From contig JBFWYP010000001.1 of assembly GCA_050186295.1 (NCBI GenBank), positions 70,069 to 134,068 on the forward strand: DNA of 64,000 nucleotides, in the 5' to 3' direction. Position 1 is the stretch's first letter; every line of letters starts with the position of its first letter. This DNA is from Thermoanaerobaculia bacterium (GTDB lineage: Bacteria; Acidobacteriota; Thermoanaerobaculia; Multivoradales; JAGPDF01). Both the position numbers and the translations under genes were made by a program. This document shows, piece after piece, positions 9,347 through 64,000 of this stretch. Under the pieces are notes generated by a model. That model ran no database searches. It was not told the origin of the DNA and saw nothing but the letters and a program-made list of their open reading frames with translations.

Positions 9347-9455
9347 AAGTTCGACCGTGGGAGCGTCGCGCGGGTAACTTCCCGCCCGGCGCTCCGTATC
9401 AGGAGAGGAAGGCGGGAGACTTCGAAACTCTCTCTCCTCCACTCTCCTTGGGAAG

Positions 9456-9487: not shown

Positions 9488-9509
9488 TTCGGGGGTAGAC
9501 TCTCCCCGC

Positions 9510-10169: not shown

Positions 10170-10173
10170 CCCG

Positions 10174-14699: not shown

Positions 14700-14708
14700 G
14701 AGGCGAGC

Positions 14709-15518: not shown

Positions 15519-15528
15519 CTACCCGCGG

Positions 15529-16800: not shown

Positions 16801-16832
16801 TTCGTTCTCCCTTTTCTGCGTATCCGGAGGCT

Positions 16833-28841: not shown

Positions 28842-28845
28842 GAGC

Positions 28846-29775: not shown

Positions 29776-29795
29776 TTGGCGAGCTCCATGTCCCG

Positions 29796-30236
29796 TCAGA
29801 TTCCCCGCTCGGCGAGCTTCGCGAAGTCGTCGTCGGTGAACGGATGTTCTTCGAGGCGCTTCTCGAAGCGCTCGCGGTTCCACACCACGAGGTGATCGAT
29901 CCGCGCGGAGACCACCACTTCGCCGCTCATCCCGGCCGCAGAGCGCACGATCGGCGGCACCAGCAGCCGCCCCTGCGCGTCGAGACGCGCCTGCTGCCCG
30001 TAGTAGCTGACCCTCTCGAGGTAGCGCTCCTTGACCCGGTCGGTCGCCGGCAGGGAGGAGAGCCGCGACTCGATCTCCTCCCAGACGGGGACCGGATAGA
30101 TGAGCGCCTGCTCGCCGGAAACCGAGGTGATGAAGTAGTCGCTGCCGAATCGATCTTCGAGCGTCCGCCGGAAGTCCGTGGGGATCTTCAGACGCCCTTT
30201 TTCATCGATCGTCGCAACTGCGCTTCCTCGGAACAT
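29796..30236 (-). CDS. mraZ: Transcriptional regulator MraZ
   Basis: 146 aa with duplicated MraZ (DUF) domains: IDEKGRLKIP and a second half with DAQGRLLVP. Confidence 0.93.
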   Translation of the reverse strand: MFRGSAVATIDEKGRLKIPTDFRRTLEDRFGSDYFITSVSGEQALIYPVPVWEEIESRLSSLPATDRVKERYLERVSYYGQQARLDAQGRLLVPPIVRSAAGMSGEVVVSARIDHLVVWNRERFEKRLEEHPFTDDDFAKLAERGI

Positions 30237-46169: not shown

Positions 46170-46173
<4 letters not shown>

Positions 46174-48611: not shown

Positions 48612-50944
48612 GGTCGCAGGTATCCGAGCACGAGGGCGGCGAGGAGCGCGAGCAGTGCGATCCCGCCCGCCAGCTTCTCCGCGAGTCGCGATGTTCCGAT
48701 CACCACTTCCTGGCGTCCGGCCGGAACCTCGACTCCGAGGAGGGCGAGATTCGCCGGCTGCGTCGGCAGGCGAGTGCCGTCGGCGAGCCGCGCCTCGATC
48801 TCCGGAAAGAAGGCGCGCTGGACGACGGCGAGACCTCCCTCCCCTTCGACCGAGAAGCGCAGGCGATCGAAACGCTCGTCGAGGATCCGGATCGTGGCTC
48901 CCGGCGTGTGGCGCACCGGCCGGCTGGCGACCGCCGTGCCGGTCTCCTCCCGCGCGCTCTCCGTGCCGTGGTCGGCCAGGAGGGCGGCGATCGGCGAGTC
49001 GGCGACCACGATCCGCTCCGGCCAGATCACCCGGCCCGCCGAGTCTGAGACGCGGTAGAGCTCGCTGTCCACACCGTAGCGGCGATCTCTGGCGACCGGC
49101 GACCCCGGGGGCGGGTTGCCGTCGTCGTCGCGGCGCACGAACCAGTCGACCCCCTGCCGGCGGAACCAGCGCAGGCGATCCGGCCAGGGGGCCCGCGCCT
49201 GGTACTCCATCAGCAGGGAGCTCAACGGTGAATAGATTCCGTCGAAATCGGGAGCCTGCGGGTAGCGGAGGCCGTGCAGAGCCCCGGTCGCGACGTCGAG
49301 ATCGAGTCGCGCATCCCGCCAGGCGGCGGTTTCCGATTCGAAGGCGCGGCCGCCGCGATTCGACGACGGCGTCGACGGCGGCACGTCCCACAGCAGGACG
49401 ACGTCGGGGTCGTCGCGGAGCATCACGATCCAGGGCGCGGGTGGCGCGAACTCGTCGCGCCGCGCAGTGGTCAGGAGCGGCAGGAGTTGCGCCAGGGCGA
49501 GAAGCTGCGCCGCCAGCACGAGACCCGGGCGGTTCCGCCGCACTCCGATCGCCGCCACAGTGAGCAGCAGCGCCGCGAAGAGCGCCCCGAGGAACCACTG
49601 CGTCTGCTGGGTCGCGGCGACGGCGTGGCTCCGCGCGCCGAGCTCGTGCACGAACCGGTCGCGGATCGGGCCCCGCCCGAACCAGAGTCCGAGCGCTGCG
49701 AGCAGCGCCAGGAGCGCTCCGGCTCCGAGGCTCCGCCGCGACTGCGCGGTGGACGCTTCGTCGCGTTCGCGGAACCAGCGATCGAAGCCCCACCCGGCGA
49801 GCAGGGCGAGTGCCAGGGTCACCCAGAGCAGGAACTTCTGCGAGAAGCGGAAAAGCCCGCCAGTGAGCCGTAGCAGAACCTCTGCCGCCGGTCCGCCCAT
49901 CCAACCGAAGACGAGTCCGGCGACGACGAGCGCCGCCCAGCGCCACCTTCGGTAGGCCGCCAGCGCCGCTGCCAGCCCCACGACTCCACAGTAGAACGAG
50001 TAGATGTACGGTGTCAGCGGAGTCACGCTCGACCAGTAGCCGAAGCGGTCCAGGTTCGACGGCCACCCCCAGGGGAGCGGCAGCAGGAGCTCGAGCCAGC
50101 GGCCCGGCGGGAGCGAGTGCGCCGACACCTGGGCGACCGTGAGCCCGTGCGCGCCACGATAGGTGAAGTCGAGGATCCGCGCCGCGGCGACGATCTGCGG
50201 CGCCGCGATCAGCAGCCCGATCCCGCCGATCACCAGACAGTCGACGACACCGCGACGGAGGCCCCGACGCTCCCACGCCACCAGCAGCATCGGCACCGTG
50301 GCGAGCGCCGCGGTGACCGGCTCTCCGGCGAGGAGCATCATCCCGCAGGCGGCTCCTCCCCAGAGACATCCGCGTCGTCCTCCGCGTGCCACACCCCAGA
50401 GGACGAACGGCAGCCAGGCGACGACGGCGATCAGGTTGTAGAAGGTGAGGAGGGTCAGGACGTAGCCCGACGCGGCGAAGGTCAGCGCCGCGAACGTCGC
50501 CGCCGCGGCACTCTGTCCGAAGGTCCTCGCCAGGAGCCGCATGCCGAGGAACGCCAGGAGCCAGTGCAGGACGTAGTGCGCATTGAAGGCGACCCAGAAC
50601 GGAAGCGCCAGATAGAGCAGATTCCCGGGATAGAACGGCAACGCGTTGGGGTTGCCGGCGAACGGCTGACCGAGCGCCCGCGTGGTGTCGAAGGACGGAA
50701 TCTCGCCGCTCGCGAGTGCCTCGGCCCCGTAGTGCTTGAACGACAGATGGGTGGTGAACACGTCGCGCGCCAGGAGCGTGCGCCCGCCCGTGAGCAGCGG
50801 CCAGGAGAAGAAGAGCCAGGTGATCGCCAGCACGACGAGGAGCCAGCGGTCGACCCGCAGAGCCGGCGCCGGAGCGACCGGCCCGGAACCCGCCCCCGGG
50901 CCGTTCCCGTCGATCGCATCCGGCGCGCTTAGAATACCGGCCAT
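48608..50944 (-). CDS. Large polytopic membrane protein, GT-C/YfhO-like putative glycosyltransferase (paralog A)
   Basis: 778 aa. It shares N-terminal blocks with paralog B (G-x-TLL/I-ARDV..TH, NALPFYP-NLL, FNAH..LH) and the same overall architecture. Confidence 0.8.
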   Translation of the reverse strand: MAGILSAPDAIDGNGPGAGSGPVAPAPALRVDRWLLVVLAITWLFFSWPLLTGGRTLLARDVFTTHLSFKHYGAEALASGEIPSFDTTRALGQPFAGNPNALPFYPGNLLYLALPFWVAFNAHYVLHWLLAFLGMRLLARTFGQSAAAATFAALTFAASGYVLTLLTFYNLIAVVAWLPFVLWGVARGGRRGCLWGGAACGMMLLAGEPVTAALATVPMLLVAWERRGLRRGVVDCLVIGGIGLLIAAPQIVAAARILDFTYRGAHGLTVAQVSAHSLPPGRWLELLLPLPWGWPSNLDRFGYWSSVTPLTPYIYSFYCGVVGLAAALAAYRRWRWAALVVAGLVFGWMGGPAAEVLLRLTGGLFRFSQKFLLWVTLALALLAGWGFDRWFRERDEASTAQSRRSLGAGALLALLAALGLWFGRGPIRDRFVHELGARSHAVAATQQTQWFLGALFAALLLTVAAIGVRRNRPGLVLAAQLLALAQLLPLLTTARRDEFAPPAPWIVMLRDDPDVVLLWDVPPSTPSSNRGGRAFESETAAWRDARLDLDVATGALHGLRYPQAPDFDGIYSPLSSLLMEYQARAPWPDRLRWFRRQGVDWFVRRDDDGNPPPGSPVARDRRYGVDSELYRVSDSAGRVIWPERIVVADSPIAALLADHGTESAREETGTAVASRPVRHTPGATIRILDERFDRLRFSVEGEGGLAVVQRAFFPEIEARLADGTRLPTQPANLALLGVEVPAGRQEVVIGTSRLAEKLAGGIALLALLAALVLGYLRP

Positions 50945-51815
50945 GTCTCTCGCTCTCCTTCGCTCGCTGCGCCCTGCGCAGTGGGTGAAGAACCTCTTCG
51001 TCCTCGTCCCGCTGGTCTTCGCTCACCGGGCCGACGACCCCACGGTGGTGCGTCGCGCGGTCGTCGCCCTGCTCTGTTTCTGCGCCGCGTCGAGCGCCAT
51101 CTACCTCGTCAACGACCTCAGGGACCGCGACAGCGACCGCCATCATCCGCTGAAACGGCTGCGCCCGATCGCCTCCGGGCTGCTCTCCCCCGCCGTCGCG
51201 GCGGCCGCCGCCGCCGTGCTGCTGGCCGGCGCCTTCCTGGCCGCCCGGGGAGCGGGAAACCGCTTCCTGTTCGCGCTCGCTGCCTACGTCGTCCTCAACG
51301 TACTCTACTCGCTCGCCCTCAAGCGGATGGTGATCCTCGACGTCATGTCGATCGCCGCCGGCTTCGTCCTCCGGGTGCTCGCCGGCGCCGTCGCGATCGA
51401 CGTCGACGTCTCGAACAGGCACCAGCTCTGCACGACGTTCGTCGCGCTCTTCCTCGGCGTCTCCAAGCGCCGCCACGAGATCGCCGCGCTGCCGCCCGGG
51501 ACCCTCGGGACCCGCGCCGTGCTCGAGCAGTACAGCCTCACCTTCCTCGATCAGCTGATCAACGTCGTCACCGCGTCCACGGTTGTCGCCTACTCTCTCT
51601 ACACCGTCGATCCGGCGACCGCGGCGAGGCTGGGCACGCCTCACCTGGTCTGGACCGTCCCGCTGGTGCTGTTCGGGATCTTCCGCTTCCTCTTCCTGCT
51701 CTATCGCTCCGACGACGCCCGCAGCCCGACCGACGCGATCCTTCGGGATCCGCCCTTCCTCGCCAACCTCGCGCTCTGGGGAGTCGTGGTGCTCTCCTTG
51801 ATCTATGGCACCTGA
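50943..51815 (+). CDS. UbiA-family prenyltransferase resembling decaprenyl-phosphate phosphoribosyltransferase (DPPR synthase)
   Basis: I trimmed the track ORF from 50736 to the ATG at 50943. The LRPAQWVKNLFVLVPLVFA N-terminus and the first Asp-rich motif NDLRDRDSDRHHPLKRLRPIASG resemble the DPPR-synthase subfamily; 8-9 TM helices. Confidence 0.85.
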   Translation: MSLALLRSLRPAQWVKNLFVLVPLVFAHRADDPTVVRRAVVALLCFCAASSAIYLVNDLRDRDSDRHHPLKRLRPIASGLLSPAVAAAAAAVLLAGAFLAARGAGNRFLFALAAYVVLNVLYSLALKRMVILDVMSIAAGFVLRVLAGAVAIDVDVSNRHQLCTTFVALFLGVSKRRHEIAALPPGTLGTRAVLEQYSLTFLDQLINVVTASTVVAYSLYTVDPATAARLGTPHLVWTVPLVLFGIFRFLFLLYRSDDARSPTDAILRDPPFLANLALWGVVVLSLIYGT

Positions 51816-54303
51816 CCGCCGCCTGCGATACGCCTTTGCGGGTCTCTTCTTCGCCTCCGGCGCCGCCGGGCTCGTCGATCAGGTGGTCTGGCTGCGCTAT
51901 CTCGCGCTCGTCTTCGGCAACACGACCCTCGCCACGGCGACGATCCTCGCCGTCTTCCTGGGCGGTCTCGGCCTGGGCTCCTGGCTCTTCTCGCGTCACG
52001 CCGAGGCGCTCGCGGAGAGCGGCAGGGCGGTCGCCGTCTACGCGCTCCTCGAGGCGGGCGTCGGTCTCTTCGCGATCTTCTCGCCGCGACTCTTCGCCGC
52101 GATCGATTCGGTCTACATCGTGACCTACCGCTCGGTCGGCGACGAGCCGCTCCTCTTCGCGCTGCTCCGCGCGGCCCTCGCGGCGCTCGTTCTCCTCCCG
52201 CCGACGCTGCTCATGGGGGGCACGCTCCCCGTGCTGCTCGGCGCCCTCTCGCGCCGTCCGGAGGGCGAAACCGCGGGTCACCGGGAAGGGCGTGACACCG
52301 CGCTCCTCTACGGCGCCAACACCCTCGGCGCGATGGCCGGCGTCGGAGCCGCCGGCTTCTTCACCATCCGGCTGTTCGGCCTCGAAGCGAGCCTCCTCCT
52401 TTCGGCGGCGCTCAATCTCGCCGTCGCCCTGGTCGCGATCCTGCTGCAGCCGCCGAAGCGCCGCGCCCCGCCGTCAACGTCGTCGCCGGCAGCCGATCCG
52501 GCGCGATACCTGCTCCTCGCCGCGCTCTTCATGGGCGCGACCAGCATCGCCTGCGAGGTGCTCTGGACCCGGGTCCTCGTCTTCTACCTCGGGTCGAGCG
52601 TCTACGCCTTCAGCCTGATGCTGCTGCTCTTCCTCGCCGGCATCGCCATCGGCAGTCTCGCCGCCGCGCGCGTCGTCGACCGGGTGGAGCGCCCGGTGGT
52701 CCTGCTCTTCCGCCTCGAGCTGCTCCTCGCGCTGCTCACTCCGGTCTCGATCTGGCTCTTCGCGACCCTCGACGACCGGCTCATCGCGCTCTCCGAGGCG
52801 CTCGAGCCGCGCCGCTTCGGTGTCGCCGTGGTGGCGGAGCTCCTGGCGATCGCTCCCATCCTCCTGCCGCCGACCCTGCTGATGGGTTTCCGCTTCCCCG
52901 TCGCAGCCCGCGCCTACTCTCGACGGATCGGGACACTCGGCGCCGACGTCGGAAGGCTGTACGGAGCCAACACGGCAGGGTCGATCGTCGGCGCGCTGGG
53001 AGCCGGCTTCCTCCTGATCCCGCTCCTCGGCAGCCAGAACTCCCTCCTCGCAGTCGGCACGGCCAACGCCCTCGTTGCCGTCTGGCTGGCCCGCCGCGCG
53101 ACGCGCGACGCCCCCCTCCTCCCGGGGGACCGTCGTCTCGCGATCGCGGCCTGGCTCGTCGTGCCGGCACTCGTCCTGACGGGATCGCTTCTGCCGCCGG
53201 ATCGCGTGATCCTCGCTTCGGGCCTCTTCGCGAGCGACCGTCCGGGCGATCTTCTCTACTTCCAAGAGGACGCCAATGCGGCGGTCGCCGTGCGCAACAA
53301 ACACGACCCCGACGGCGACTACGTCTCGCTCGAGCTCAACGGCGTCAACGTCGCCGGGACCAGTCCGGACCTCTACGCCGTGCAGAAGCTGCAGGGGCAT
53401 CTGCCGCTCCTCCTTGGGAACCACGACGACGCCCGTGTCGTCCATATCGGATTCGGTAGCGGCGGCACGGCGCACGCGGTATCGCGCCACCCGGTGAGCG
53501 AGATCCGGATCGTCGAGATCAGTCCGGCGGTCCTGGCGGCTTCTGACCGCTACTTCGCCGGAATCAATCACGGCGTTCTCGCCGACCCGCGCGTGAAGGT
53601 CGAGATCAACGACGGACGCAACTTCCTGCTCGCGACACCGCTGGTCTTCGACGCGGTGCTGTCCGACTCGATCCATCCGCGCTACGCCGGCAACGGTTCT
53701 CTCTACAGCAAGGAGTACTTCGAGCTGGTGGCGAAACGTCTCGCTCCGGGCGGCGTCGTCTCGATGTGGCTGCCGATGTACTCTCTCACCACGTCGAACT
53801 ACGCGATGATCGTCCGCGCCTTCAGGGACGTCTTCCCCCACACCGTGATCTGGTACGAGCCGTCGGCGCTCAACTCGTTCACCGTCGTCACCGGGCGACG
53901 CTCCGGCGGACCCTGGGACGAGGCCGAGCTGGCGCGGAACTTCCGCGATCCGGCAGTCCTCGAAGCGCTCGCCGACATCGGCATGAGAACGCCGGCCGAC
54001 GTTCTCGCCTGCTACATCGTCTCCGGTCTCGAGCTCGACGCCTTCCTCGGTGGCGCGCCGCCGCACGTCGACGACCTGCCGGCCGTCGAGTACGAAAGCG
54101 GCACCCTGCTCGGCGCCAACTGGACCTGGCTCGAGACCTTCTCGCGGCTCCTCGCCAGCCGCCCGGTGGAAGTTCCCGACACGGTGCTCGAGGCGGTACC
54201 CGAAGACGAGCGCGAAGCGCTTCGGTCGGCGTGGACCGCGCGAGGACAGCACCTCGAGGGTCAACGGCAGTTCCTCGCCGCGAACGTCACCCGCTGGCAC
54301 TGA
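51805..54303 (+). CDS. Fused MFS-like membrane domain / spermidine-synthase-like (polyamine aminopropyltransferase fold) protein
   Basis: 832 aa with a roughly 450 aa, 12-TM N-terminus. The C-terminal class-I MTase/spermidine synthase fold carries VVHIGFGSGGTAH, EIRIVEISPAV, VEINDGRNF and FDAVLSDSIHP. Confidence 0.85.
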   Translation: MAPDRRLRYAFAGLFFASGAAGLVDQVVWLRYLALVFGNTTLATATILAVFLGGLGLGSWLFSRHAEALAESGRAVAVYALLEAGVGLFAIFSPRLFAAIDSVYIVTYRSVGDEPLLFALLRAALAALVLLPPTLLMGGTLPVLLGALSRRPEGETAGHREGRDTALLYGANTLGAMAGVGAAGFFTIRLFGLEASLLLSAALNLAVALVAILLQPPKRRAPPSTSSPAADPARYLLLAALFMGATSIACEVLWTRVLVFYLGSSVYAFSLMLLLFLAGIAIGSLAAARVVDRVERPVVLLFRLELLLALLTPVSIWLFATLDDRLIALSEALEPRRFGVAVVAELLAIAPILLPPTLLMGFRFPVAARAYSRRIGTLGADVGRLYGANTAGSIVGALGAGFLLIPLLGSQNSLLAVGTANALVAVWLARRATRDAPLLPGDRRLAIAAWLVVPALVLTGSLLPPDRVILASGLFASDRPGDLLYFQEDANAAVAVRNKHDPDGDYVSLELNGVNVAGTSPDLYAVQKLQGHLPLLLGNHDDARVVHIGFGSGGTAHAVSRHPVSEIRIVEISPAVLAASDRYFAGINHGVLADPRVKVEINDGRNFLLATPLVFDAVLSDSIHPRYAGNGSLYSKEYFELVAKRLAPGGVVSMWLPMYSLTTSNYAMIVRAFRDVFPHTVIWYEPSALNSFTVVTGRRSGGPWDEAELARNFRDPAVLEALADIGMRTPADVLACYIVSGLELDAFLGGAPPHVDDLPAVEYESGTLLGANWTWLETFSRLLASRPVEVPDTVLEAVPEDEREALRSAWTARGQHLEGQRQFLAANVTRWH

Positions 54304-54306
54304 GAG

Positions 54307-55296
54307 ATGGCTGAACCTCTCGAGGATGCGGACCCGGGCTCCCTTCCGGGAGGCTGGACGCGGCGACTCCGTCCGCACGAGTGGCTCACCCTCCTCTTCG
54401 CCGGACTCACCGCCGTCCTGTTCGCCTGGCGCGGGGAGCCGTTCACGGTCGGGCCGCTCCTGCGCGGTTACGGAAAGTTCGTCGGTGCGATCTCGCTGCT
54501 CCTCGTGCCGGCCTGGTACGTCGGCGAGCTCCGGCGCCGGCGGCTGGGGGAAGCCAGCCCGTCGTTCGCCGTGCAGCTCGCGGACTACCTGCGCTCGCTC
54601 GCGGTGCTCGTCCTCGCGCTGGTGGCCTACACCAACCTGAAGTGCCGCCTGCTCCTCCTCCACCCCCGGCTCTTCGACCGCGTCCTGGCGCGCCTCGACG
54701 CCATCCTGCACGCCGCGGGGGGCGACCTGGCCGGCTGGATCGCCTCGTTCCACTCGCCGGCGCGGACCGTCCCGTTCCATCACGTCTACTTCCTCGCCTG
54801 GGCGGCGTTCGCGCTGCCGCTCGCCGTCGCGGCCGCGGTCCGCGGAGCGGCGACCGTTCGCCGCGCTCTCACCGCGCTCACGATCCTCTACATCGCCGGC
54901 GTGCTGCTCTACCTCGCGGTCCCGTCACTTGGTCCGGCGCTGGTCGACCGCGCGGCGTTCCGCGCCCTCGACGGCACCGAGATGTTCACGCTGCAGACCG
55001 AGATGCTGGCGGCCCTCCGTTACACGGTCGAACACCCGCACGCTCCGGCGGTCCCGTTCTTCGGCCTCGCCGCCTTCCCGAGCCTCCACGTCGCTACCAG
55101 CTTCCTCGGCATCCTGGTCGCCTGGCGCACCTGGCGCCCGCTGCTCGTCCTGCTCGTCCCCTGGAATCTCGCCATCGCCGCCAGCGCGGTCTACTTCGGC
55201 TGGCACTACATCCTCGACTTCTATCCCGCGATCGGGCTGGCGTGGGGGTGCTGGTGGGTGGCCGGATCGCGGAGATTCGCCACCCCGGGCCCGTAG
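54307..55296 (+). CDS. PAP2-superfamily membrane phosphatase
   Basis: Polytopic membrane protein with PAP2-like motifs PSLH and WHYILD in the C-terminal helices; 3 nt after the upstream stop. Confidence 0.7.
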   Translation: MAEPLEDADPGSLPGGWTRRLRPHEWLTLLFAGLTAVLFAWRGEPFTVGPLLRGYGKFVGAISLLLVPAWYVGELRRRRLGEASPSFAVQLADYLRSLAVLVLALVAYTNLKCRLLLLHPRLFDRVLARLDAILHAAGGDLAGWIASFHSPARTVPFHHVYFLAWAAFALPLAVAAAVRGAATVRRALTALTILYIAGVLLYLAVPSLGPALVDRAAFRALDGTEMFTLQTEMLAALRYTVEHPHAPAVPFFGLAAFPSLHVATSFLGILVAWRTWRPLLVLLVPWNLAIAASAVYFGWHYILDFYPAIGLAWGCWWVAGSRRFATPGP

Positions 55297-55313
55297 CTAT
55301 ACTGCGACTCCCC

Positions 55314-57101
55314 GTGAAGAGCAGCCCCGGAACCACCGAATCGCAAGACCCTCCACCGGGCCGGCGAGCGACGATCGTCGCAGGAGCCGCGGCGGTCATC
55401 CTGTTCGGCGCTTCGATCCTGTTCCTTCACGTCCTCGCAGTCACCACCGAAAGCATCAACTGGGACGAGTTCGCGCTCTTCGCTCGCGCCGTCGATTCGG
55501 TCCAGGGAGGCAAACTGATCACCGGGGGCCGCCCCGGGCTCGGCGTCGTCTCGCTCATTCCGATCGCAGTCCCTTGCGAGAGCGAGGTCGCCACGGTGCA
55601 GCTGGGCAGATTCCTCTGGATCGGATGGACCCTGCTCGCCGGGCTTGCCCTCTGGTTGCTGGTTCGTCGCTGCCTAACCGGAGCGAAGGAGGCGCCGTGG
55701 GCGGCCGCGCTCGCGGTCGGGCTCTGGTTCCTCGTGCCCGTGGTCGAGAGATGGTCGCTCCATGTGCGCACCGATCAGCCCGCACTCGCTCTGGCTCTCC
55801 TGGGGACGCTCGGACTTCTCGACCGCCGCGGTCGACTCTTCACCGGAATCCTCTCGGGCGCGCTGTTCGGGCTGGGTTATCTCTTCTCCCAGAAGGCCGT
55901 GTACGTCGCCGCTCTGGGCATGCTGCTCTGGATGTTCGATCGATTTCCCGGCCTGCGCGGACTCCTGGCCAGCGAATGGAAGAGGCTCGTCGGCATCGGC
56001 GCCGGCGGCCTGGCGGTCCTGGCGGCATTTCGCATCGCCACCTCCCTCGCATTCGAGATCCCGGACGCGCTCACGATCGACCGCGCGCTGCGATTCCGTG
56101 CCGACTACTCGGACATGTCGGCATCGGCGCTGATCGGCGCAGGAGCGACCCTCGTTCCCCACCTCGTCCTCGTCCTGCTCATGCTCCTCGCGACTCACCG
56201 TCTCTGGGGCAGCGGTTCGCCCGAACAGACGCTGCTCCTGCGCTCCTGGGCCGTTCTCGCCCTCGGAGGAGCCGTTCTGCTCTTCCACACCAGCCGATTC
56301 GTCTATTTCTGGATCACTCTCGGCATCTTCCCCGCGGTCGCTCTGGCGCTCGCGCTGCCGGTGATCCGGCATGCCTTGCCGCCCGGCCTCGTACGCATCA
56401 CGCTGGCGACGACCATCCTCCTTCTCGCGATTCCGGGAATCTCCGCGGCGCGGTCGATGCTCCTCGATTCACAGCGGTTTCAGCGCGAGAGTCTGGAGTT
56501 CGTGGATCGCAACTTCTCCGACTCCGAAGCGGGATTTCAGCCCGAACGGGCGCTGTTCTGTCGCGACTCCGACGATCCCTTCCCCACCTACTTCACCCTG
56601 CGAATCGGCCGCGACTTTCGACCTGCGGCCCGGGGGAAGGCGGAAGAGTTCCTGCGCAAGTTCCGCGAGCGCCCCGTCTACTACATCGTCGATTCGCATC
56701 GGCTGTCGCTGTTTCCACCCGCGATCTGGGATTTCTGGAGAGCCCACTACGTGCCCTACTACTCTGCGGTCGCCATTCCGGGATTCACCGTGGACGGAGC
56801 CGGTCCGTCACCGCAGACCGGAGAGATCATCATTCCGGGCGACTACCGCTGGATCCCGCTCGCCTCGTCCTCGGGCGCCGCGCTACGCCTCGACGGAGTC
56901 GACCTGCCGGCCAGAGAGGCAAGGCACCTCGAGGCGGGAGCGCACAGCGTGGAAACGGGGTCCGGAGTCAGCGGCGTGGTCGCCTGGGCGCTCGCCGAGG
57001 AGCCCCATGATCCCCAACGGTCCTTCTACGGTCTCGCGATGCTGAATGAGTTCACCTACGGCAACGCTCGCGGCGCCACACGACGAAGGAAGGTGGACTG
57101 A
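55314..57101 (+). CDS. GT-C family membrane glycosyltransferase (ArnT/PMT_2-like), putative polyprenyl-phosphate-sugar dependent
   Basis: I trimmed the track ORF from 54381 to the GTG at 55314 (MKSSPG...). The first TM is followed by a loop with NWDEFALFARA (the DE motif of GT-C enzymes), about 11 TM helices, and a C-terminal soluble domain. Confidence 0.65.
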   Translation: MKSSPGTTESQDPPPGRRATIVAGAAAVILFGASILFLHVLAVTTESINWDEFALFARAVDSVQGGKLITGGRPGLGVVSLIPIAVPCESEVATVQLGRFLWIGWTLLAGLALWLLVRRCLTGAKEAPWAAALAVGLWFLVPVVERWSLHVRTDQPALALALLGTLGLLDRRGRLFTGILSGALFGLGYLFSQKAVYVAALGMLLWMFDRFPGLRGLLASEWKRLVGIGAGGLAVLAAFRIATSLAFEIPDALTIDRALRFRADYSDMSASALIGAGATLVPHLVLVLLMLLATHRLWGSGSPEQTLLLRSWAVLALGGAVLLFHTSRFVYFWITLGIFPAVALALALPVIRHALPPGLVRITLATTILLLAIPGISAARSMLLDSQRFQRESLEFVDRNFSDSEAGFQPERALFCRDSDDPFPTYFTLRIGRDFRPAARGKAEEFLRKFRERPVYYIVDSHRLSLFPPAIWDFWRAHYVPYYSAVAIPGFTVDGAGPSPQTGEIIIPGDYRWIPLASSSGAALRLDGVDLPAREARHLEAGAHSVETGSGVSGVVAWALAEEPHDPQRSFYGLAMLNEFTYGNARGATRRRKVD

Positions 57102-57161
57102 CGTGTCCCCGACAACCTCGCAACTCTTCACGGCCGATCGACATACCCGCCCGGGGACATC

Positions 57162-58337
57162 GTGAAGAAGCTGCGCACGAAGTCCGACCTCGCGATCCAC
57201 GGGGCCCCGCCCGCATTCGAGTCTCCGCTCCACGTAGGCCGTCCGAACATCGGGGATCGCAACCGGTTCCTGGAGCTGGCAAGCGAAGTCCTCGATCGGG
57301 CGTGGCTCACGAACAACGGCCCCCTCGTGCAGGAACTGGAAGCACGACTGGCGCGAGTTCTCGAGGTTCGGCACTGCATCGCCATGTGCAACGGAACCGT
57401 CGCGCTCGAAACGGCGATCCGTGCGACCGGCCTCCGTGGCGAGGTCATCGTTCCTTCGTACACGTTCATCGCGACCGCACACGCGCTCCACTGGCACGGC
57501 CTCACCCCGGTCTTCGCGGACATCGACCTCCACACGCACTCGCTCGATCCCGAGTCGGTTCGATCGAAGATCACTGCCCGCACCAGCGCGATCCTCGGAG
57601 TCCACCTCTGGGGCCGACCGGCTGCGCACGCCGAGCTCGAACGGATCGCTTCCGAGCACGGCCTCGCGCTCCTCTACGACGCCGCCCACGCCTTCGGCTC
57701 GACGCTGGATTCTCGCCCGGTCGGTCGCCTCGGACGATGCGAGGTGTTCAGTTTCCACGCAACGAAGTACTTCAGTTGCGGCGAGGGCGGTGCCGTCACC
57801 ACGAACGACGATCAGCTGGCGGAGAAGATCCGACTGATGAGGAACTTCGGCTTCGCGGGATTCGACAACGTCGTTCACCCCGGAACGAACGCCAAGATGC
57901 CCGAGATGTCCGCGGCTCTCGGCCTCTCGAACCTCGACAGCCTGGACCGGATACTCGATTGGAACCGACGAAACTTCGAGCTCTACGCCGAAGCGCTCTC
58001 CGGCCTTCCCGGCATCTCCCTTTTCGAGCCGCCTCCGTCCGAGCGCTCCAACTATCAGTACGTCGTCGTCGAAACGCACGAGGACTGCACGGCTTCGCGG
58101 GACGAGCTCCTCGCCACTCTCCACGCCGAGAACGTGTTGGCGAGGAGGTACTTCTGGCCCGGGTGTCACCGCATGCTTCCCTACCGCGAGAGCGACCCCG
58201 GCGCAGCCGAGCACCTTTCCCGCACGGAGGTCGTCGCCGGACGCGTCATCGTGCTCCCGACCGGACTCGCGATTTCGGAAGAGGAGATCCGGATCGTGGC
58301 GTCCATCCTCGAAATCGCGCTGTCCCGACGCCGGTGA
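57162..58337 (+). CDS. DegT/DnrJ/EryC1/StrS family sugar aminotransferase (PLP-dependent)
   Basis: 391 aa with the conserved SFHATKYFSCGEGG lysine region; GTG start at 57162. Confidence 0.9.
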   Translation: MKKLRTKSDLAIHGAPPAFESPLHVGRPNIGDRNRFLELASEVLDRAWLTNNGPLVQELEARLARVLEVRHCIAMCNGTVALETAIRATGLRGEVIVPSYTFIATAHALHWHGLTPVFADIDLHTHSLDPESVRSKITARTSAILGVHLWGRPAAHAELERIASEHGLALLYDAAHAFGSTLDSRPVGRLGRCEVFSFHATKYFSCGEGGAVTTNDDQLAEKIRLMRNFGFAGFDNVVHPGTNAKMPEMSAALGLSNLDSLDRILDWNRRNFELYAEALSGLPGISLFEPPPSERSNYQYVVVETHEDCTASRDELLATLHAENVLARRYFWPGCHRMLPYRESDPGAAEHLSRTEVVAGRVIVLPTGLAISEEEIRIVASILEIALSRRR

Positions 58338-59473
58338 GCCTTCGCCCACGCGGCCTTCTCATCTTCGGCGGGTCGAACAACCGAGCCGTCGTCGCGCTCT
58401 CTCGAGCCCTCACCGCGCTCTCGCTTCCTTTCCACATCATCGCCAGGAACGGCGCTGACCCCGTGCTCAGGACACGGTTCTCGCGCCACGTCTCGTCGAT
58501 CCGCACCTCCGAGGAGCTCGATCTCGATCGGTTCGCAGGCTGGATCTCCGATGCGACTTCCCGGTCGCCGGGAGTCGACTGGACGATCGCTCCCACTTCC
58601 GAGTTCGTGAACCTCTGGATGCTCCGCGAGCGCGACGGCATCGAATCCCTCGGCGCCCGCGTCCCTCTCGTCGAGGCACCGCTCTACGACTCGTTGACGA
58701 ACAAATGGAGCGCGTCGCAGCTGTTCGGGAGCCGCGGGATCCGAGTTCCCGCACTCAGAACCGGCTTCCTCTCCGAGGCATTGCCGCTCGTCGCCAAGCC
58801 TCACAGGAATCTGGGAGCCGCAGGCCGCATGCTCTATCCGTGGATCATCCGCAGCAGGCATCAACTCGACGTGTTCCTGGAGTCCGAGAACCCAGACGAC
58901 TATTTTCCCCAGGAGCTCGTGCGGGGCGACAGCTTCTACCTCCTGCTCCACTTGGCTCGCAATGGCAGGGTGACGGCATCGAGCCAGCGAAACATCGCCC
59001 AACAGGCGGGGGGTCGATCGATCGTGCTCGCCGAGACCTCGGACTTCCACTGTCAGCCGGTCGCGGACCGGGCAATCACCGTGCTCCGGGATGCGGGCTT
59101 TCGCGGGCTTGCGATGATCGAGTTTCTCGTCGACCGATCGGACGCCTGTTTCATCGAGATCAACCCGCGGGCCTGGGGGCCACTCCAACTCTGCCTGGAT
59201 CACGCCAGCGGTATAGTCGAATCGTTCCTCGGTGACGAATTGTTCGACGACGAGACGAAATTTCTCGAAACGGCCGACCGACGGCCCAAGCGTGCGGCCT
59301 ACTCGTGGATGGGGGGATGGTTCGACGAGTGGCGCGCGCGGAGGCCCGTGCATTGGTGCGGTGGTTTCCGCCCTCCACTCTCGCTTCGTCTGAGATTGCT
59401 GTCCGGTGACGTATACCTGCGTCGAGACACCTGGAGGCTCACCCTCTCGTCGGAGCAGTCTCGTGCCCGATGA
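58334..59473 (+). CDS. ATP-grasp domain protein (putative amide ligase)
   Basis: I trimmed the track ORF from 57302 to the GTG at 58334, which overlaps the degT stop as GTGA. ATP-grasp core with IEINPRAWGP; about 379 aa. Confidence 0.75.
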   Translation: MSLRPRGLLIFGGSNNRAVVALSRALTALSLPFHIIARNGADPVLRTRFSRHVSSIRTSEELDLDRFAGWISDATSRSPGVDWTIAPTSEFVNLWMLRERDGIESLGARVPLVEAPLYDSLTNKWSASQLFGSRGIRVPALRTGFLSEALPLVAKPHRNLGAAGRMLYPWIIRSRHQLDVFLESENPDDYFPQELVRGDSFYLLLHLARNGRVTASSQRNIAQQAGGRSIVLAETSDFHCQPVADRAITVLRDAGFRGLAMIEFLVDRSDACFIEINPRAWGPLQLCLDHASGIVESFLGDELFDDETKFLETADRRPKRAAYSWMGGWFDEWRARRPVHWCGGFRPPLSLRLRLLSGDVYLRRDTWRLTLSSEQSRAR

Positions 59474-60326
59474 TCCGACCGACGAGCTGAAGCAACTGCT
59501 CTCGTCGCTCTATGGGGACGCTTCGAAGCACTCCGGATATCAGACCATGCCGGATTTCGTGGCCGAACGTCTCGGCTTCCAGAGTGTGATCGATCAACGC
59601 TGGCGTGGCGACCGAGTTCGTCTCGACTACATCCGACGCGTCATCCGGGACGACCCGCAATCGTGGTGCGATTTCGGCGCAAACACCGGCTTCTTCTCGC
59701 TTTCGCTCGCGGAGGCAAGTCCGCGAACGGAAGTCCTCGCAGTCGAAGCGAATCCTCGACACGCGGAGCTGATCGAACGGGTCTCCGCAGCCTGTCGACT
59801 CCCGAACCTCCGCGTACTGTCGCGGTCGATCGGAATCCGGGAGCTCGACGAGCTCGGACGAGTGGACGTTCTCCTGCACATGAACGTCCTTCACCATGCA
59901 GGAGTCGACTTCGACACCGATGTGGTCGGCGGCCCTGGTGAATTCGCGGACTACGCCATCCACTACCTCACTCGCGTCGCTGCGATCTCCGACCGCCTCG
60001 TTTTCCAGGCGGGCGTCAACCTCGGAGGTGACAAGAGCCGTCCGATTCTCGACCGGGCCGACCACGCGACGCGAACGAGGTACTGGTCCGATCTGCTGAG
60101 GGCGGCCGGTTGGCGGGTCCTGGACTGCGCGCTCGCACGGAGCGAGTCGAACGGCTCGGTGGCGTACCTCAGCATGCCGGCGCGCCTTCTGGAGTTCCTC
60201 GGATCGCCGCGCGACGAACCGGGCGCCGTCATGGACGAATGGTTCGCCGGCCTCGGTCTCGACCGCCACCCGGGCGAGTTTTTTCTGCGGCCGATCTTCT
60301 ACTGCGCCGCCGGGAGGGGTCGCTAG
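59406..60326 (+). CDS. FkbM-family SAM-dependent methyltransferase
   Basis: DFGANTGFFSLSLAE matches the FkbM family motif D-x-GAN-x-G. The start may be the later ATG at 59547; I cannot resolve the 68 nt overlap with the ATP-grasp ORF. Confidence 0.65.
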   Translation: MTYTCVETPGGSPSRRSSLVPDDPTDELKQLLSSLYGDASKHSGYQTMPDFVAERLGFQSVIDQRWRGDRVRLDYIRRVIRDDPQSWCDFGANTGFFSLSLAEASPRTEVLAVEANPRHAELIERVSAACRLPNLRVLSRSIGIRELDELGRVDVLLHMNVLHHAGVDFDTDVVGGPGEFADYAIHYLTRVAAISDRLVFQAGVNLGGDKSRPILDRADHATRTRYWSDLLRAAGWRVLDCALARSESNGSVAYLSMPARLLEFLGSPRDEPGAVMDEWFAGLGLDRHPGEFFLRPIFYCAAGRGR

Positions 60327-61783
60327 GAGGGACCTCCATCGGACATGTCGATCCCGAGGAGGAAGTCTCGCTCATCGTGCCTCCGATTCCACGGCACTCC
60401 CTGCCAGGCGGTTCCACCGAGATACAACGCGAAAAACAGTCCTGCCGAGACCGTGAGGCGGGACAGCGGCGACTCTGCGAGCTCCGAAGCCAGTTTCGCG
60501 CCCCCTCCGGCCAGGGCATTGAGCAACACGATCCGGCCCAGATGACGGAGCTGGGGCGCGAGCCCGTAGCCCAGCCACCGATCGGAGTACCGGAGGTTCG
60601 CGACCAGTGCTACAGCGCTCGCCAGCGCGAAGGCCCAGGCGACACCGATCGCGCCGAACCCTGATCCCGCGACGATCGCGACGATGAGAATCGACTTCTT
60701 TACGATCTCGAGCTTCAGGAATCTCCGCGCGTGGCCCATGGCCTTCAGCGCCGCGAGATTGATCGCGCTCACCGGCGCGAACAGCGCGGCCAGAGCGAGA
60801 ATCGCGAGAACCGGCCCCGTCTCCGACCAGTCCGGACCGAGAAGGATCGCGACGAGGTCCTTCGCCCCGATCGACAGCAGGAGCATGCAGGGCATGAACA
60901 GGAACTGCGCGGTTGCATTCCAGTGACGAATCGCTCGCCGGAGCGCCGAACGATCGGTCGCGATTTCGGAGAGGACAGGAAGCCCGGTCCGATCGATCAA
61001 CCGCGTCGCGAGGAAGGTAGGAACCTGCTGGACGTTCTGGGCCAGGGAGAACCGACCGACCGTGCCGCTGTCGAACTTCCACCCCAGGATCAGGGCGTGG
61101 AGGCGAGTCGACAGCGTGTCGAGAAGTGAGGAGAGCGCCAGGAAGCCGCCGAATCCGACCAGGTCCCGGATCGCGGATCGTCGGACGCGACCTCGCGGTC
61201 GCCAGCCGGAGAACATCCACAAGCCGAGGACCCGCAGGGCCATCGTCCCGAGCGTGAAGACGATCAGGCTCCAGAGACCGCGCCCCCGGGCAGCGAGCAG
61301 AACAGCTCCCGCTCCGGCGGCGAGCGATGCACCGATCTCGATCGCCGCACGGCGCTGGAACCGCAACGCCCTCACCAGGAATCCGTCCGGCACCGCGACG
61401 AGCGAACCCAGCGGTAGCGCCAGGGAGAGCCATCGGACCAGGAAGAGCAGACCGGGTTCGCCGAACGATCTGGAAAGCCACGGCGCAGCGGCCCAGAGCA
61501 TCGCCCCTGCGATGCTTCCGCAGGCGAAAGAGGCGAGGAGCGCCGAAACCCGGTGATCCTCGGTGACGTCGGGCAGCTGGACCAGCGCAGCCCCGAAACC
61601 CGAATCGCTCAGGATGAGTCCGAGGCTGACGAAGACCATGGCGATCGAAAGCAGTCCGAATTCGCCGGGGGAAAGGAGACGTGCAAGCAACAGGAACACC
61701 AGCATCTGAATTCCGTATCGCGCGACGAGCTCGACGCCCCCCCACATCGCCACGTGTACGATGCTCCTGCGGAGCGCCTTCAT
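60323..61783 (-). CDS. Polysaccharide biosynthesis protein, Wzx-like flippase (MOP superfamily)
   Basis: About 12-14 TM helices with a typical Wzx/PST-family N-terminus; I trimmed the start to MKALRRSIVHVAMWGG. Confidence 0.8.
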   Translation of the reverse strand: MKALRRSIVHVAMWGGVELVARYGIQMLVFLLLARLLSPGEFGLLSIAMVFVSLGLILSDSGFGAALVQLPDVTEDHRVSALLASFACGSIAGAMLWAAAPWLSRSFGEPGLLFLVRWLSLALPLGSLVAVPDGFLVRALRFQRRAAIEIGASLAAGAGAVLLAARGRGLWSLIVFTLGTMALRVLGLWMFSGWRPRGRVRRSAIRDLVGFGGFLALSSLLDTLSTRLHALILGWKFDSGTVGRFSLAQNVQQVPTFLATRLIDRTGLPVLSEIATDRSALRRAIRHWNATAQFLFMPCMLLLSIGAKDLVAILLGPDWSETGPVLAILALAALFAPVSAINLAALKAMGHARRFLKLEIVKKSILIVAIVAGSGFGAIGVAWAFALASAVALVANLRYSDRWLGYGLAPQLRHLGRIVLLNALAGGGAKLASELAESPLSRLTVSAGLFFALYLGGTAWQGVPWNRRHDERDFLLGIDMSDGGPS

Positions 61784-61831
61784 GACGCAGAGCTCTCGGC
61801 TTGCCACCGCGGAACGGAAGTCGACGGCACG

Positions 61832-62860
61832 CTAGGCTCCTCGCCTTCCGAAGAGAACTCGCTCGGCCACCTGCCGGAAAACATAGAGCAAAGCCGCCGG
61901 ACGGGCCGCCACTTCCGAGAGGAAGGCCCGGCAGAACTCCAGGCTCGCCCGCGCTTCGCCCGCCCTCAAAGCTGCTGCGATACCCTTCAACGCCTGTCCC
62001 GTTCGACGGTCGGCCAATCGTCCGCGGACCCAAGGGTCCGAGCTCATCTCCGCGACGACCTCGAACGTCCGCCTGCGGAACCGGGCCCGCTGGATCCCCG
62101 ATCGCAGACTCCAGACACCCCCCCGATGCACGCGATAAACCACCGGCTGCATGTCCGGTCGTGCGATCGCCATTCCGAATCGACCCAACCATGCCCAGAA
62201 AACCGTGTCTGCGTTCACGACGTCGAGGATGGACTCCGGGAACGAGGGGTCCGAGAGCACATTTCGGAAAAGTACCGACTGGTTGATGATCGGTTCTCCG
62301 GCTGCCAACTCGCGCCGGCTCACGTCGCGGAACAGTCGGCGGGGAACGAAGTACTCGGTCGTCCGCCTTCCGTCGATCTCGCGCACGGCGTTCGTCATGC
62401 ACATGACGGCGTCCGGACGGGTGTGAAGCGTCTCGACCTGCGCCGACAACTTGGTCTCGTCCATCCAGTAGTCGTCGCCGTCGAGCCAGGCGACGAACTC
62501 TCCGCGACAGCGCGAGAGGAGGTCGAGCAGGTTGAATCGTCCGGTCTGAACCCCGTCGATCACGATCCGGTTCTCCGGTCGCTGCAGGATCAGCCGGATC
62601 CGCCCAGCGTTCCTGCTCGCGATGTCCCTGCAGATCTCTCTCGTCCCGTCCGTGGAGGCATCTTCGCCGACGAGAATCTCGAAACCGAAGTCCGTGCGTT
62701 GCGCGAGAACGGACTCCAACGCCTGGGCGATGAAATTCCGATGATTGTAGGTGGGAACGATGACCGACACCAACGGAGAGTCGGGAACCTCGTTCGCGAC
62801 CTCGAGGGGAGCCACTTTTCGAACACGCGCGACGAGACGGTCGAGTTCGCGGATCACGCG
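61832..62860 (-). CDS. Glycosyltransferase family 2
   Basis: VSVIVPTYNHRNFIAQALESV, ILVGEDASTDGT and DGDDYW motifs. I trimmed the start to the GTG at 62860 so it does not overlap the upstream GT26 gene. Confidence 0.85.
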   Translation of the reverse strand, partial: RVIRELDRLVARVRKVAPLEVANEVPDSPLVSVIVPTYNHRNFIAQALESVLAQRTDFGFEILVGEDASTDGTREICRDIASRNAGRIRLILQRPENRIVIDGVQTGRFNLLDLLSRCRGEFVAWLDGDDYWMDETKLSAQVETLHTRPDAVMCMTNAVREIDGRRTTEYFVPRRLFRDVSRRELAAGEPIINQSVLFRNVLSDPSFPESILDVVNADTVFWAWLGRFGMAIARPDMQPVVYRVHRGGVWSLRSGIQRARFRRRTFEVVAEMSSDPWVRGRLADRRTGQALKGIAAALRAGEARASLEFCRAFLSEVAARPAALLYVFRQVAERVLFGRRGA

Positions 62861-62921
62861 AAGCGTCTCCGTCTCTTCCTCGCATACGACTCCCGGCAGG
62901 ACGGTCGTGCGGAAAGGGCTC

Positions 62922-63692
62922 CTAGGGGGTAGAGTCGCCGCGGACGCCCCGCAGCCGGTAGCCGAGAATCCGGGCGCCGAATCGCGGCAGTCCGAGGAGA
63001 TATCGCTTCGCGACTCTCCTGGGCTGGACAATGAGGCGAAAGAGCCATTCGAAACCTCGATCCGTCATCCATCGCGGCCCGCGACGCTCGTGTCCGGTAT
63101 ACCAACGGAACATCCCTCCGACTGCGAGCGACGTTGCGGAAGAGAGGCGCCCGCGATGTCTCGCCATCCAGATTTCCTGTCGCGGGCAACCCATTGCGAC
63201 GAGCACCATTCCGGCCCCGGACTCGCGAACCATCCCTGCGACGCGGTGTTCCTCCTCCGGTCCGAAGTAGCCGTGATGATAACCGGCAACCATTTCGCCG
63301 AAGCGCTCGGTGACGGCCTCCGCCATCTTCTTCGCGACCTGCGGTTCGTCTCCGAGAAGGAAGACGGAGCTGCCGATTTCGCGGAGGCGAGTGAAGATCT
63401 CGTCGATGAAGTCGGGAGTCGCCATTCGCTCGGGCACCGGAACTCCGAGGAATCGCAGGCCGAGGCGTGCGCCTACGCCATCGCAGAACACGAGGTCGAG
63501 CGACCTCATCGCCTCGGCGAGCTCGGGGTTTCCGTGGAGCTCCTCGAAGATGTGGGCATTGACGTAACCCGCGCAGAGTCCCTTCCCTCCCCGGACGCTG
63601 TCGACCAGGGTGTCGATCATCTCTGCGCGCTCGACCAGATCGATGACAAGCGGGCCGAGCCGGTACCTCCGATCTGGCAGCGCCGTACTCAT
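62922..63692 (-). CDS. WecB/TagA/CpsF-family glycosyltransferase (GT26)
   Basis: 256 aa with the GT26 fold pattern (VNAHIFEEL, LVFCDGVGARLG, GCPRQEIW). Confidence 0.85.
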   Translation of the reverse strand: MSTALPDRRYRLGPLVIDLVERAEMIDTLVDSVRGGKGLCAGYVNAHIFEELHGNPELAEAMRSLDLVFCDGVGARLGLRFLGVPVPERMATPDFIDEIFTRLREIGSSVFLLGDEPQVAKKMAEAVTERFGEMVAGYHHGYFGPEEEHRVAGMVRESGAGMVLVAMGCPRQEIWMARHRGRLSSATSLAVGGMFRWYTGHERRGPRWMTDRGFEWLFRLIVQPRRVAKRYLLGLPRFGARILGYRLRGVRGDSTP

Positions 63693-63888
63693 CGCTTCAC
63701 CCGGGATCAGAATACGTCATAGTCTCGTCGAATCAGCAGTCTTGCAACGGGCGGAACCGCCCAAACCAGGCGCCGATCCGGGCACACCCGGCGACAGCGC
63801 ACCTCGGGAGCCGGATTGCCGGAAGAGGCGAGAGAATCGGGAGGCATCACGTGGAGGCGTGAAGCGCGTGCCGCGGTGATGGTGCTGT

Positions 63889-64000
63889 GCGACTCGCTTG
63901 CCATCCTGGCATCCGGGCTGTTCGCGTTCCTCACCTGGGCGCGACCCGTCCGCGGCCAGGACCTCGCGCTCTACTCGGAGCTCTGGATCCTCCTGCCGCT
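63889..64000 (+). CDS. Partial ORF (5' end only) with N-terminal TM helix; possibly a polyprenyl-phosphate sugar phosphotransferase
   Basis: ATG at 63889 is followed by MVLCDSLAILASGLFAFLTWARP... and stays open to the window end. The function is a guess from the TM N-terminus and the surrounding glycan genes. Confidence 0.3.

Follow-up and report, generated by a model that had tools for sequence, protein, structure and literature searches.

Organization of the locus

Three partly overlapping genes, encoding a DegT-family aminotransferase, an ATP-grasp ligase and a protein with a methyltransferase fold, lie near the right end of a 64,000-nucleotide stretch of DNA from a Thermoanaerobaculia bacterium of the Acidobacteriota (contig JBFWYP010000001.1, positions 70,069 to 134,068; this whole stretch is hereafter called the window). 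As delineated at 57162-60326 by a first-pass annotation made from the DNA letters, all three open reading frames (ORFs) are present on the + strand: the DegT gene at 57162-58337 (391 amino acids, aa), the ATP-grasp gene at 58334-59473 (379 aa), and the third gene at 59463-60326 (287 aa). The trio forms the 3' end of a co-directional gene run.

The stop codon of the DegT gene (TGA, 58335-58337) overlaps the GTG start of the ATP-grasp gene at 58334, the GTGA overlap (58334-58337, + strand) described in the first-pass annotation being directly readable in the sequence. The protein read from this GTG aligns from residue 4 onward with 22 homologs 370-409 aa long, which marks the overlap as a true gene junction, and the identical 4-nucleotide overlap is called in four other loci (L001, L005, L007 and L027; L numbers denote the loci compared). 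Public ATP-grasp gene calls of 284, 288 and 336 aa are truncated, the conserved N-terminal domain with the motif FGGSNNRAV being lost, and one ENA call gives the gene at its full 379 aa. The start codon of the third gene is GTG 59463; the gene overlaps the ATP-grasp gene by 11 nucleotides, and is preceded, at a distance of 7 nucleotides and within the 3' end of the ATP-grasp gene, by a Shine-Dalgarno-like GGAG motif (59452-59455, + strand). This start agrees with the NCBI call and with a 94%-identical homolog, also of 287 aa; nearly all of 120 relatives measure about 255-307 aa. Longest-ORF gene calling on high-GC loci produced spurious antisense ORFs, and was not used.

At its 3' end the trio meets a flippase gene of the opposite strand, the two stop codons overlapping at a CTAG palindrome (60323-60326), so that neither intergenic space nor a terminator separates the two transcription units. 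A promoter and terminator scan of the 54-64 kb part of the window returned nothing exceeding the shuffled background.

The DesI-like aminotransferase

The product of the first gene is a full-length match to PF01041 (E=2e-104; 349.8 bits against a cutoff of 19.8, residues 34-382 covered), the family of DegT/DnrJ/EryC1 aminotransferases dependent on pyridoxal phosphate (PLP). The best curated model is TIGR04427 (PLP_DesI, dTDP-4-dehydro-6-deoxyglucose aminotransferase; dTDP, deoxythymidine diphosphate), at 491.7 bits and thus below the equivalog cutoff of 650. Among solved structures the closest is Streptomyces venezuelae DesI (2po3, E=8e-117), identical at 197 of 385 aligned columns (51%). The PLP-lysine motif SFHATK matches DesI residue for residue, and is of the aminotransferase type, not of the type with a histidine found in dehydratases. 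The protein is thus, judging from sequence, a putative DesI-like aminotransferase of nucleoside diphosphate (NDP)-4-keto-6-deoxyhexoses, a result in line with the first-pass annotation, according to which enzymes of the DegT/EryC1 type typically act on an NDP-4-keto sugar. The partner DegT proteins of Comamonas and Terrisporobacter likewise have DesI as best solved relative, though they are only 34-39% identical to the window protein.

DesI is a 4-aminotransferase of dTDP-4-keto-6-deoxy-D-glucose, and the likeness to the window enzyme lies in the overall identity and in the common PLP-lysine motif. The systems differ in setting, a macrolide sugar there and a surface glycan here. They differ further because the window lacks a radical S-adenosylmethionine (SAM) partner of the DesII type, and its DegT protein scores below the TIGR04427 cutoff.

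The ATP-grasp ligase

The second protein barely exceeds the gathering score of PF02655, ATP-grasp_3 (23.7 vs. 23.2 bits). Among 23 family members 19 match ATP-grasp_3, six match CPSase_L_D2, and two ATPgrasp_Ter. Residues K155, Q193, E263, E275, N277 and R279 are invariant in the 23 sequences; K155 is the nucleotide lysine, and E275-x-N277-x-R279, part of the IExNPR motif, the metal and phosphate site. The window version of the motif, IEINPR, aligns with IEVNPR in the biotin-carboxylase domain of pyruvate carboxylase. An AlphaFold2 model computed from the family alignment (predicted local distance difference test score, pLDDT, 91) displays a three-domain ATP-grasp fold, for which Foldseek returned biotin carboxylase, PylC, PurK and L-amino-acid ligase with probability 1.0, at template modeling (TM) scores of 0.47-0.61 and identities of 14-19%. 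A profile search of 1.84 billion representative sequences found 366 relatives at E<=1e-30, and 3,494 at E<=0.001. A tblastn search of 72,556 plasmids gave no match to the ATP-grasp protein.

The first-pass annotation had suggested sorting the enzyme among PylC-like, D-Ala-D-Ala ligase-like and carbamoyl-phosphate-synthase-like proteins, and curated models place it in none of these groups. PylC (TIGR03909) was discarded at 13.3 bits against a cutoff of 248.3, and a carbamoyl-phosphate-synthase-like identity (PRK12767, NF009405) at 20.8 against 390. None of the 23 members matches the Dala_Dala_lig_C or RimK models at E<=0.01, and the grouping with peptide or ribosomal-modification ligases that the same annotation held to be incompatible with its proposal is not seen. 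Neither sequence nor fold searches returned a close solved structure for this protein or for its methyltransferase-fold partner. The ATP-grasp protein appears to belong to a family of its own, with a predicted intact catalytic core, lying outside every characterized clade compared.

The methyltransferase-fold partner

The third protein, labeled in the first-pass annotation as an FkbM-family methyltransferase, keeps the second half of that name only. PF05050 (FkbM) matches neither the window protein nor any of 41 family members, and TIGR01444 (FkbM) scores 21.9 bits against a cutoff of 37.7, the similarity being confined to the motif I-II stretch DFGANTGFFS...AVEANP; presumably, it was this stretch that evoked FkbM. 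Membership in that family was consequently ruled out. Methyltransf_12 is matched by 38 of the 41 members, the window protein itself scoring just below threshold (25.8 bits, cutoff 30). In the AlphaFold2 model (pLDDT 93) the protein resembles, with a Foldseek probability of 1.0 and TM scores not exceeding 0.51, the O-methyltransferase StiE, the sugar O-methyltransferase EvdMO1, WbdD, and others. Motif I residues D70, G72, N74 and G76, and E95, the acidic residue after strand 2, are invariant in the family. The modeled fold is that of class I SAM-dependent methyltransferases, and SAM binding and methyl transfer are predicted. An invariant NVLHH stretch was considered as an 'NPPY-like' motif of N-methyltransferases, and the idea was dropped, 'vlhh' after strand 4 being generic in enzymes of the Methyltransf_11/12 type.

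Conservation of the module

The surroundings of ATP-grasp relatives were compared at 26 distinct loci, 25 of which are evaluable because the sequence continues beyond the gene. A methyltransferase-fold gene lies directly 3' of the ATP-grasp gene, or is fused to it, in 25/25 loci; a 4-nucleotide overlap is common at this junction. A DegT gene resides within 2 kb of the pair in 24 of the 25, often with overlapping stop and start codons. Natural fusions with the ATP-grasp moiety preceding the methyltransferase make up at least 63 clusters at 90% identity; they are 587-643 aa long and cover 85-100% of the fusion protein of Terrisporobacter (four were inspected by eye). Gene order repeated in 25 independent loci, together with these fusions, places the arrangement far beyond chance.

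The module was found in at least six bacterial phyla, carriers including Proteobacteria, Bacillota, Bacteroidota, Acidobacteriota and Patescibacteria. The degree of similarity to the window proteins does not run in parallel for the components. Xanthomonadales DegT proteins are 59-62% identical to that of the window and their ATP-grasp proteins 37-41%, whereas in Burkholderiales the figures are 34-39% and 43-44%, respectively. This pattern points to the ATP-grasp/methyltransferase pair as the stable core, and to an exchange of the aminotransferase among DesI-like lineages. A search of the literature for the aminotransferase/ATP-grasp/methyltransferase trio found no paper on it.

In an Acidobacteriota metagenome-assembled genome (L020) the ATP-grasp homolog is split in two pieces (10001-10207 and 10242-11114), and a DegT homolog is missing within 10 kb. 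The split gene may be either a decaying copy or an assembly error.

Proposed pathway

We favor, with moderate confidence, the view that the trio is a self-contained nucleotide-sugar tailoring module, in which the ATP-grasp ligase N-acylates dTDP-viosamine and methylation follows. By homology, RmlA and RmlB, encoded outside the window, would supply dTDP-4-keto-6-deoxy-D-glucose, and the DesI-like enzyme would transaminate it at C4 to yield dTDP-4-amino-4,6-dideoxy-D-glucose (dTDP-viosamine). General ATP-grasp chemistry and gene context suggest that a small, common carboxylate, with amino acids and short hydroxy acids as candidates, may next be activated by the ATP-grasp enzyme as acyl-phosphate, and that attack by the 4-amino group of the sugar would form an amide. 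Obligate pairing and fusions point to the SAM-methyltransferase-fold partner for the third step, the addition of a methyl group. The methyl group would most probably go to the substituent just added, such as an aminoacyl residue with a free amine; a ring hydroxyl is the alternative, as in 2-O-methylated N-acyl-viosamines. Annotation and synteny suggest that the finished sugar would then be placed by a family 2 glycosyltransferase (GT2) on an undecaprenyl-linked unit started by a Bac_transf enzyme, extended by a glycosyltransferase of family 26 (GT26), and flipped by Wzx. In this Thermoanaerobaculia genome either a polysaccharide or a protein O-glycan could serve as acceptor.

Several observations support this scheme. 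Fusion of the ATP-grasp and methyltransferase moieties suggests that a single substrate is processed by both enzymes in succession. In L029 the trio stands alone, with no glycan genes nearby, which suggests that no special donor synthesis is needed, and fits donors drawn from ordinary metabolism. The ATP-grasp protein neighbors aminotransferases of the DesI type and in no case clusters with ligases of ribosomal or peptide modification, and for these reasons the amidation of the sugar, put forward in the first-pass annotation, is the best reading of its role.

Other observations weigh against the scheme. Both the ATP-grasp and the methyltransferase-fold families are biochemically uncharacterized, and ATP use and SAM binding are predictions. 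The ATP-grasp protein has no close characterized or solved relative (identities of 14-19%, TM scores of 0.61 at most), so that the carboxylates named above are candidate donors, and the methyl target is divided between the attached group and a ring hydroxyl. No equivalent of RmlA or RmlB, and more generally no nucleotidyltransferase or 4,6-dehydratase, occurs among the 40 window proteins scanned (the intervals at about 24.9-30.2 kb and 36.1-38.0 kb lie outside the scan), as the first-pass annotation had remarked for the window. The trio is not co-transcribed with the window genes for Wzx, GT2 and GT26, which occupy the other strand. Finally, L020 keeps the pair without DegT, the ATP-grasp frame being split there.

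The resemblance of the ATP-grasp protein to carboxylases admits a different chemistry. The enzyme might N-carboxylate the 4-amino group with bicarbonate, and its partner promptly convert the resulting carbamate to the methyl ester, to give an N-methoxycarbonyl amino sugar. The best sequence and fold matches are indeed biotin-carboxylase domains and PurK, alongside PylC, and the reaction would proceed through carboxyphosphate, in the manner of biotin carboxylase and PurK. That the two proteins are strictly paired and often fused would be sensible if a labile intermediate were handed over, and no donor-synthesis genes would be required, as the stand-alone trio of L029 illustrates. N-methoxycarbonyl amino sugars occur in nature, kijanose being an example. 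The carboxylase matches, however, are limited to a generic metal-binding motif of 45 residues or to the general fold, and, in an alignment made in motif register only, the conserved IExNPRxWGP has an invariant proline at Arg+4, where biotin carboxylase carries its catalytic glutamate. We know of no bacterial surface glycan with an N-methoxycarbonyl group, and a literature search for kijanose or methyl carbamate together with ATP-grasp gave nothing. Methyl-carbamate capping is thus regarded as unlikely. Were it correct, the pair would install an N-substituent new to bacterial surface glycans, with the methyl carbamate as the most distinctive candidate, decorating flagella, pili and polysaccharides in at least six phyla; we consider this improbable.

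Genomic settings

The majority of the module loci are flagellin or pilin islands. The trio adjoins fliC/fliD in Comamonas, Paraburkholderia, Caballeronia turbans and one Pseudomonas strain, and type IV pilin genes in Fulvimonas, Rudaea, Luteibacter, other Rhodanobacteraceae, and one Casimicrobiaceae genome. In other genomes, one Patescibacteria genome included, the module is found with polysaccharide genes of the Wzx or ABC-transporter type. Cultured carriers include Terrisporobacter petrolearius, whose fusion protein has the accession WP_228107064.1, Caballeronia turbans LMG 29316, and Fulvimonas sp. R45. From these settings, N-acylation and methylation of a viosamine-type sugar by the module would appear to feed flagellin and pilin glycans outside the Thermoanaerobaculia.

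The complete genome of Terrisporobacter petrolearius is informative as to the sugar. Its flagellin island comprises fliS-fliD-fliT-flagellin, three glycosyltransferase genes, the ATP-grasp::methyltransferase fusion, DegT, a radical-SAM gene, RfbA, RfbB, and flagellar rod genes. RfbA (460 bits, cutoff 361) and RfbB (495 bits, cutoff 365) pass their equivalog cutoffs, and neither RmlC nor RmlD was found in the island, which indicates that dTDP-4-keto-6-deoxyglucose is made there for this pathway. The radical-SAM/SPASM gene (L026, 13067-14017; 316 aa) sits between DegT and RfbA; by score, it is not DesII-like.

In most of the pilin islands reside membrane proteins of about 650 aa lacking annotation; pilB/C/D genes are found in several. 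The membrane-protein genes, at times in two copies, adjoin type IV pilin genes in L001 (4422-6401), L002 (2452-4431), L005 (589-2553) and L007 (1406-3349), and relatives occur in L011, L015 and L017-L019. An F-x-DD motif in the N-terminal part is invariant among the proteins, and their C-terminal parts weakly match tetratricopeptide repeats; they belong to no Pfam family, and are candidate pilin glycosyltransferases.

Abundance in appendage islands raises the question of whether the ATP-grasp/methyltransferase pair acts directly on flagellin or pilin, or on some non-glycan metabolite, the DegT protein belonging to a separate pathway. Protein-modifying ATP-grasp enzymes and methyltransferases exist, and L029 has no glycan genes in its surroundings. 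Yet the window, L027 and L028 carry the pair with no appendage genes in range, DegT is adjacent in 24/25 loci, often with stop/start overlap, and at E<=0.01 no member of the ATP-grasp family matches RimK or other protein-ligase models. Direct modification appears very unlikely.

The constancy of the DegT neighbor bears also on the polarity of the reaction. The carboxylate activated by the ATP-grasp enzyme could instead sit on a sugar of the glycan, a uronic acid or some other acidic one, and be coupled to an amine that is either the DegT product or unrelated to it. General ATP-grasp chemistry allows this, and ATP-grasp amidoligases that amidate capsule glucuronate are known (Campylobacter jejuni Cj1438). 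In the loci read, however, neither a UDP-sugar dehydrogenase nor a uronic-acid gene is conserved beside the pair, the DesI-like aminotransferase being the sole constant neighbor, and fusion to a methyltransferase would be left unexplained. We hold this reverse polarity to be quite unlikely; both uronic-acid amidation and direct protein modification fit the conserved neighbors poorly.

Glycan neighbors and other genes of the window

Downstream of the trio, three genes on the - strand encode a Wzx-type flippase of the multidrug/oligosaccharidyl-lipid/polysaccharide superfamily (60323-61807; PF13440, E=2e-65), convergent with the third gene, a GT2 glycosyltransferase (61832-62857; PF00535, E=1e-22) and a WecG/TagA/CpsF glycosyltransferase of the GT26 family (62922-63692; PF03808, E=1e-52; TIGR00696, 130 bits, cutoff 69). 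The best NCBIfam match of Wzx is an 'O-glycosylation flippase' model, at a sub-threshold 180 bits. The start of the GT2 gene is ambiguous, since the gene call on record is 341 aa long and the mechanical ORF extends to 63031; its product is a candidate transferase for the modified sugar. Farther on, a gene on the + strand runs off the window (63816-64000). The first-pass annotation had placed this partial gene at 63889; the true start is TTG 63816, and the gene encodes the 5' end of a Bac_transf phosphoglycosyltransferase. In another assembly of this locus (L031, 3-1151) 383 aa of the protein can be read (PF02397, E=9e-24); as a predicted polyprenyl-phosphate sugar-phosphate transferase, it is likely the initiating enzyme. 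Together with it, Wzx, GT2 and GT26, to which the first-pass annotation rightly assigned a part in repeat-unit assembly, make up a lipid-linked repeat-unit set.

The trio and the glycan genes were expected by that annotation to be co-transcribed, failing which its proposal was to be given up. On those formal terms the expectation fails, Wzx, GT2 and GT26 being convergent and on the opposite strand. The functional link survives, because homologs of the window Wzx and GT2 are on the same strand as the trio, and 3' of it, in at least eight loci from other phyla. Wzx homologs 30-44% identical follow the trio in L002, L005, L006, L011, L014, L015, L018 and L019, and a GT2 homolog (43% identity over 336 aa) is beside it in L006.

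Directly 5' of the trio, separated from it by 60 nucleotides and co-directional, is a gene for a polytopic membrane protein of 615 aa (55254-57101, + strand), with no Pfam or NCBIfam match. BLAST against the membrane proteins of about 650 aa of the pilin islands was negative, and the hhalign probability was 29%. This gene is the last of four on the + strand (50955-57101), the others encoding a UbiA-family protein, a spermidine-synthase-like membrane protein and a PAP2_3 phosphatase. The UbiA-family protein passes the NCBIfam equivalog for decaprenyl-phosphate phosphoribosyltransferase (276 bits vs. 234), and an 832-aa membrane protein of the run has the spermidine-synthase domain at its C-terminus. 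We take the run to resemble the first steps of the mycobacterial pathway to polyprenyl-phospho-ribose/arabinose donors; no DprE1- or DprE2-like genes were seen.

The glycan block (55254-63692) has a G+C content of 0.637-0.665 per gene, lower than that of the whole window (69.6%, or 0.696) and of the genes just upstream (0.69-0.72). This may denote either a horizontal origin, or the composition usual for glycan loci.

Divergent from the UbiA operon, on the - strand (46170-50944), two adjacent polytopic membrane proteins of 813 and 778 aa are paralogs (34% identity over 367 aa, E=5e-31) matched by no Pfam or NCBIfam model. Two tandem DUF2911 paralogs are encoded at 8735-10169 (+ strand). An ordinary division and cell wall (dcw) cluster occupies about 14700-30200 on the - strand, in which ftsZ, ftsA, ftsQ, murC, murG, ftsW, murD and mraY could be recognized; just 3' of ftsZ are genes for a class I methyltransferase and a VanZ-like protein. 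The rest of the window encodes Mfd, transhydrogenase, and other housekeeping functions beside the dcw cluster.

Relation to known systems

The scaffold suggested for the window product, 4-amino-4,6-dideoxyglucose, is shared by the viosamine sugars, which are N-acylated, often methylated, and displayed on flagella. N-acyl, O-methyl viosamines of flagellin and spore glycans include mVio of Pseudomonas syringae, Qui4N(3-hydroxybutanoyl) of Burkholderia cenocepacia and anthrose of Bacillus anthracis. In pathways of the mVio/anthrose type the acyl group comes from acyltransferases using acyl-coenzyme A or acyl carrier protein, together with fatty-acid-type enzymes; here, an ATP-grasp ligase would take their place. 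On the best reading, N-acylation and methylation of NDP-amino sugars are known, and what is new is that an ATP-grasp/methyltransferase pair would carry them out.

Two amidoligases with genetic support are close in organization; both are compared with the present family by description. The ATP-grasp domain of Neisseria meningitidis PglB2 is held responsible, on genetic evidence, for the glyceramido sugar on pilin (PMC11130364). The PglB2/PglC system combines, like the module, a DegT-family 4-aminotransferase with an ATP-grasp domain, adds a non-acetyl acyl group to the new amine, and ends in a type IV pilin product, the glyceramido-acetamido-trideoxyhexose of the pilin glycan; pilin would also be the acceptor for the Xanthomonadales loci described here. 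In contrast, PglB2 has its ATP-grasp domain fused to a phosphoglycosyltransferase instead of a methyltransferase, the substrate is a UDP-2-acetamido sugar instead of a DesI-type dTDP sugar, and no methyltransferase partner is described. In Clostridioides difficile the ATP-grasp protein CDR20291_0245 is required, again on genetic evidence, for a terminal Fuc3N capped with Gly-Ala-taurine on flagellin (PMC5207245, PMC5207246). In this type B locus CDR20291_0245 adjoins the FdtB-like DegT protein CDR20291_0247 within a flagellin glycosylation island. It differs, however, in belonging to ATP-grasp_4 (PF13535) while the family described here matches ATP-grasp_3, in the action of the aminotransferase at C3, and in having FemAB-like and ornithine-cyclodeaminase-like partners in place of the methyltransferase-fold protein. 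The arrangement typical of these amidoligases, an ATP-grasp gene beside DegT in a surface-glycan locus, was found in 24 of the 25 loci.

A looser parallel is offered by Shewanella oneidensis, where the adjoining sfmD (SAM methyltransferase) and sfmE (ATP-grasp_4) genes are both needed for full flagellin modification (PMC3765264). There the two genes stand in reverse order and encode larger proteins (395 and 412 aa), the ATP-grasp protein falls in another Pfam family, and the pathway is that of nonulosonic acids.

The module is a widespread, uncharacterized unit of flagellin, pilin and polysaccharide glycosylation. The glycans of flagellin and pilin influence motility, recognition by phages and by the immune system, and serotype, and genome data are a poor guide to the unusual sugars they contain. 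Taken together, the DesI-like aminotransferase, the separate ATP-grasp family and its obligate methyltransferase-fold partner, fused to the ATP-grasp protein in many lineages, provide a compact marker for a predicted sugar decoration. If N-acylation by the ATP-grasp enzyme is true, a reaction which, in the cases of PglB2 and CDR20291_0245, has so far rested on genetics would gain its first defined enzyme family.

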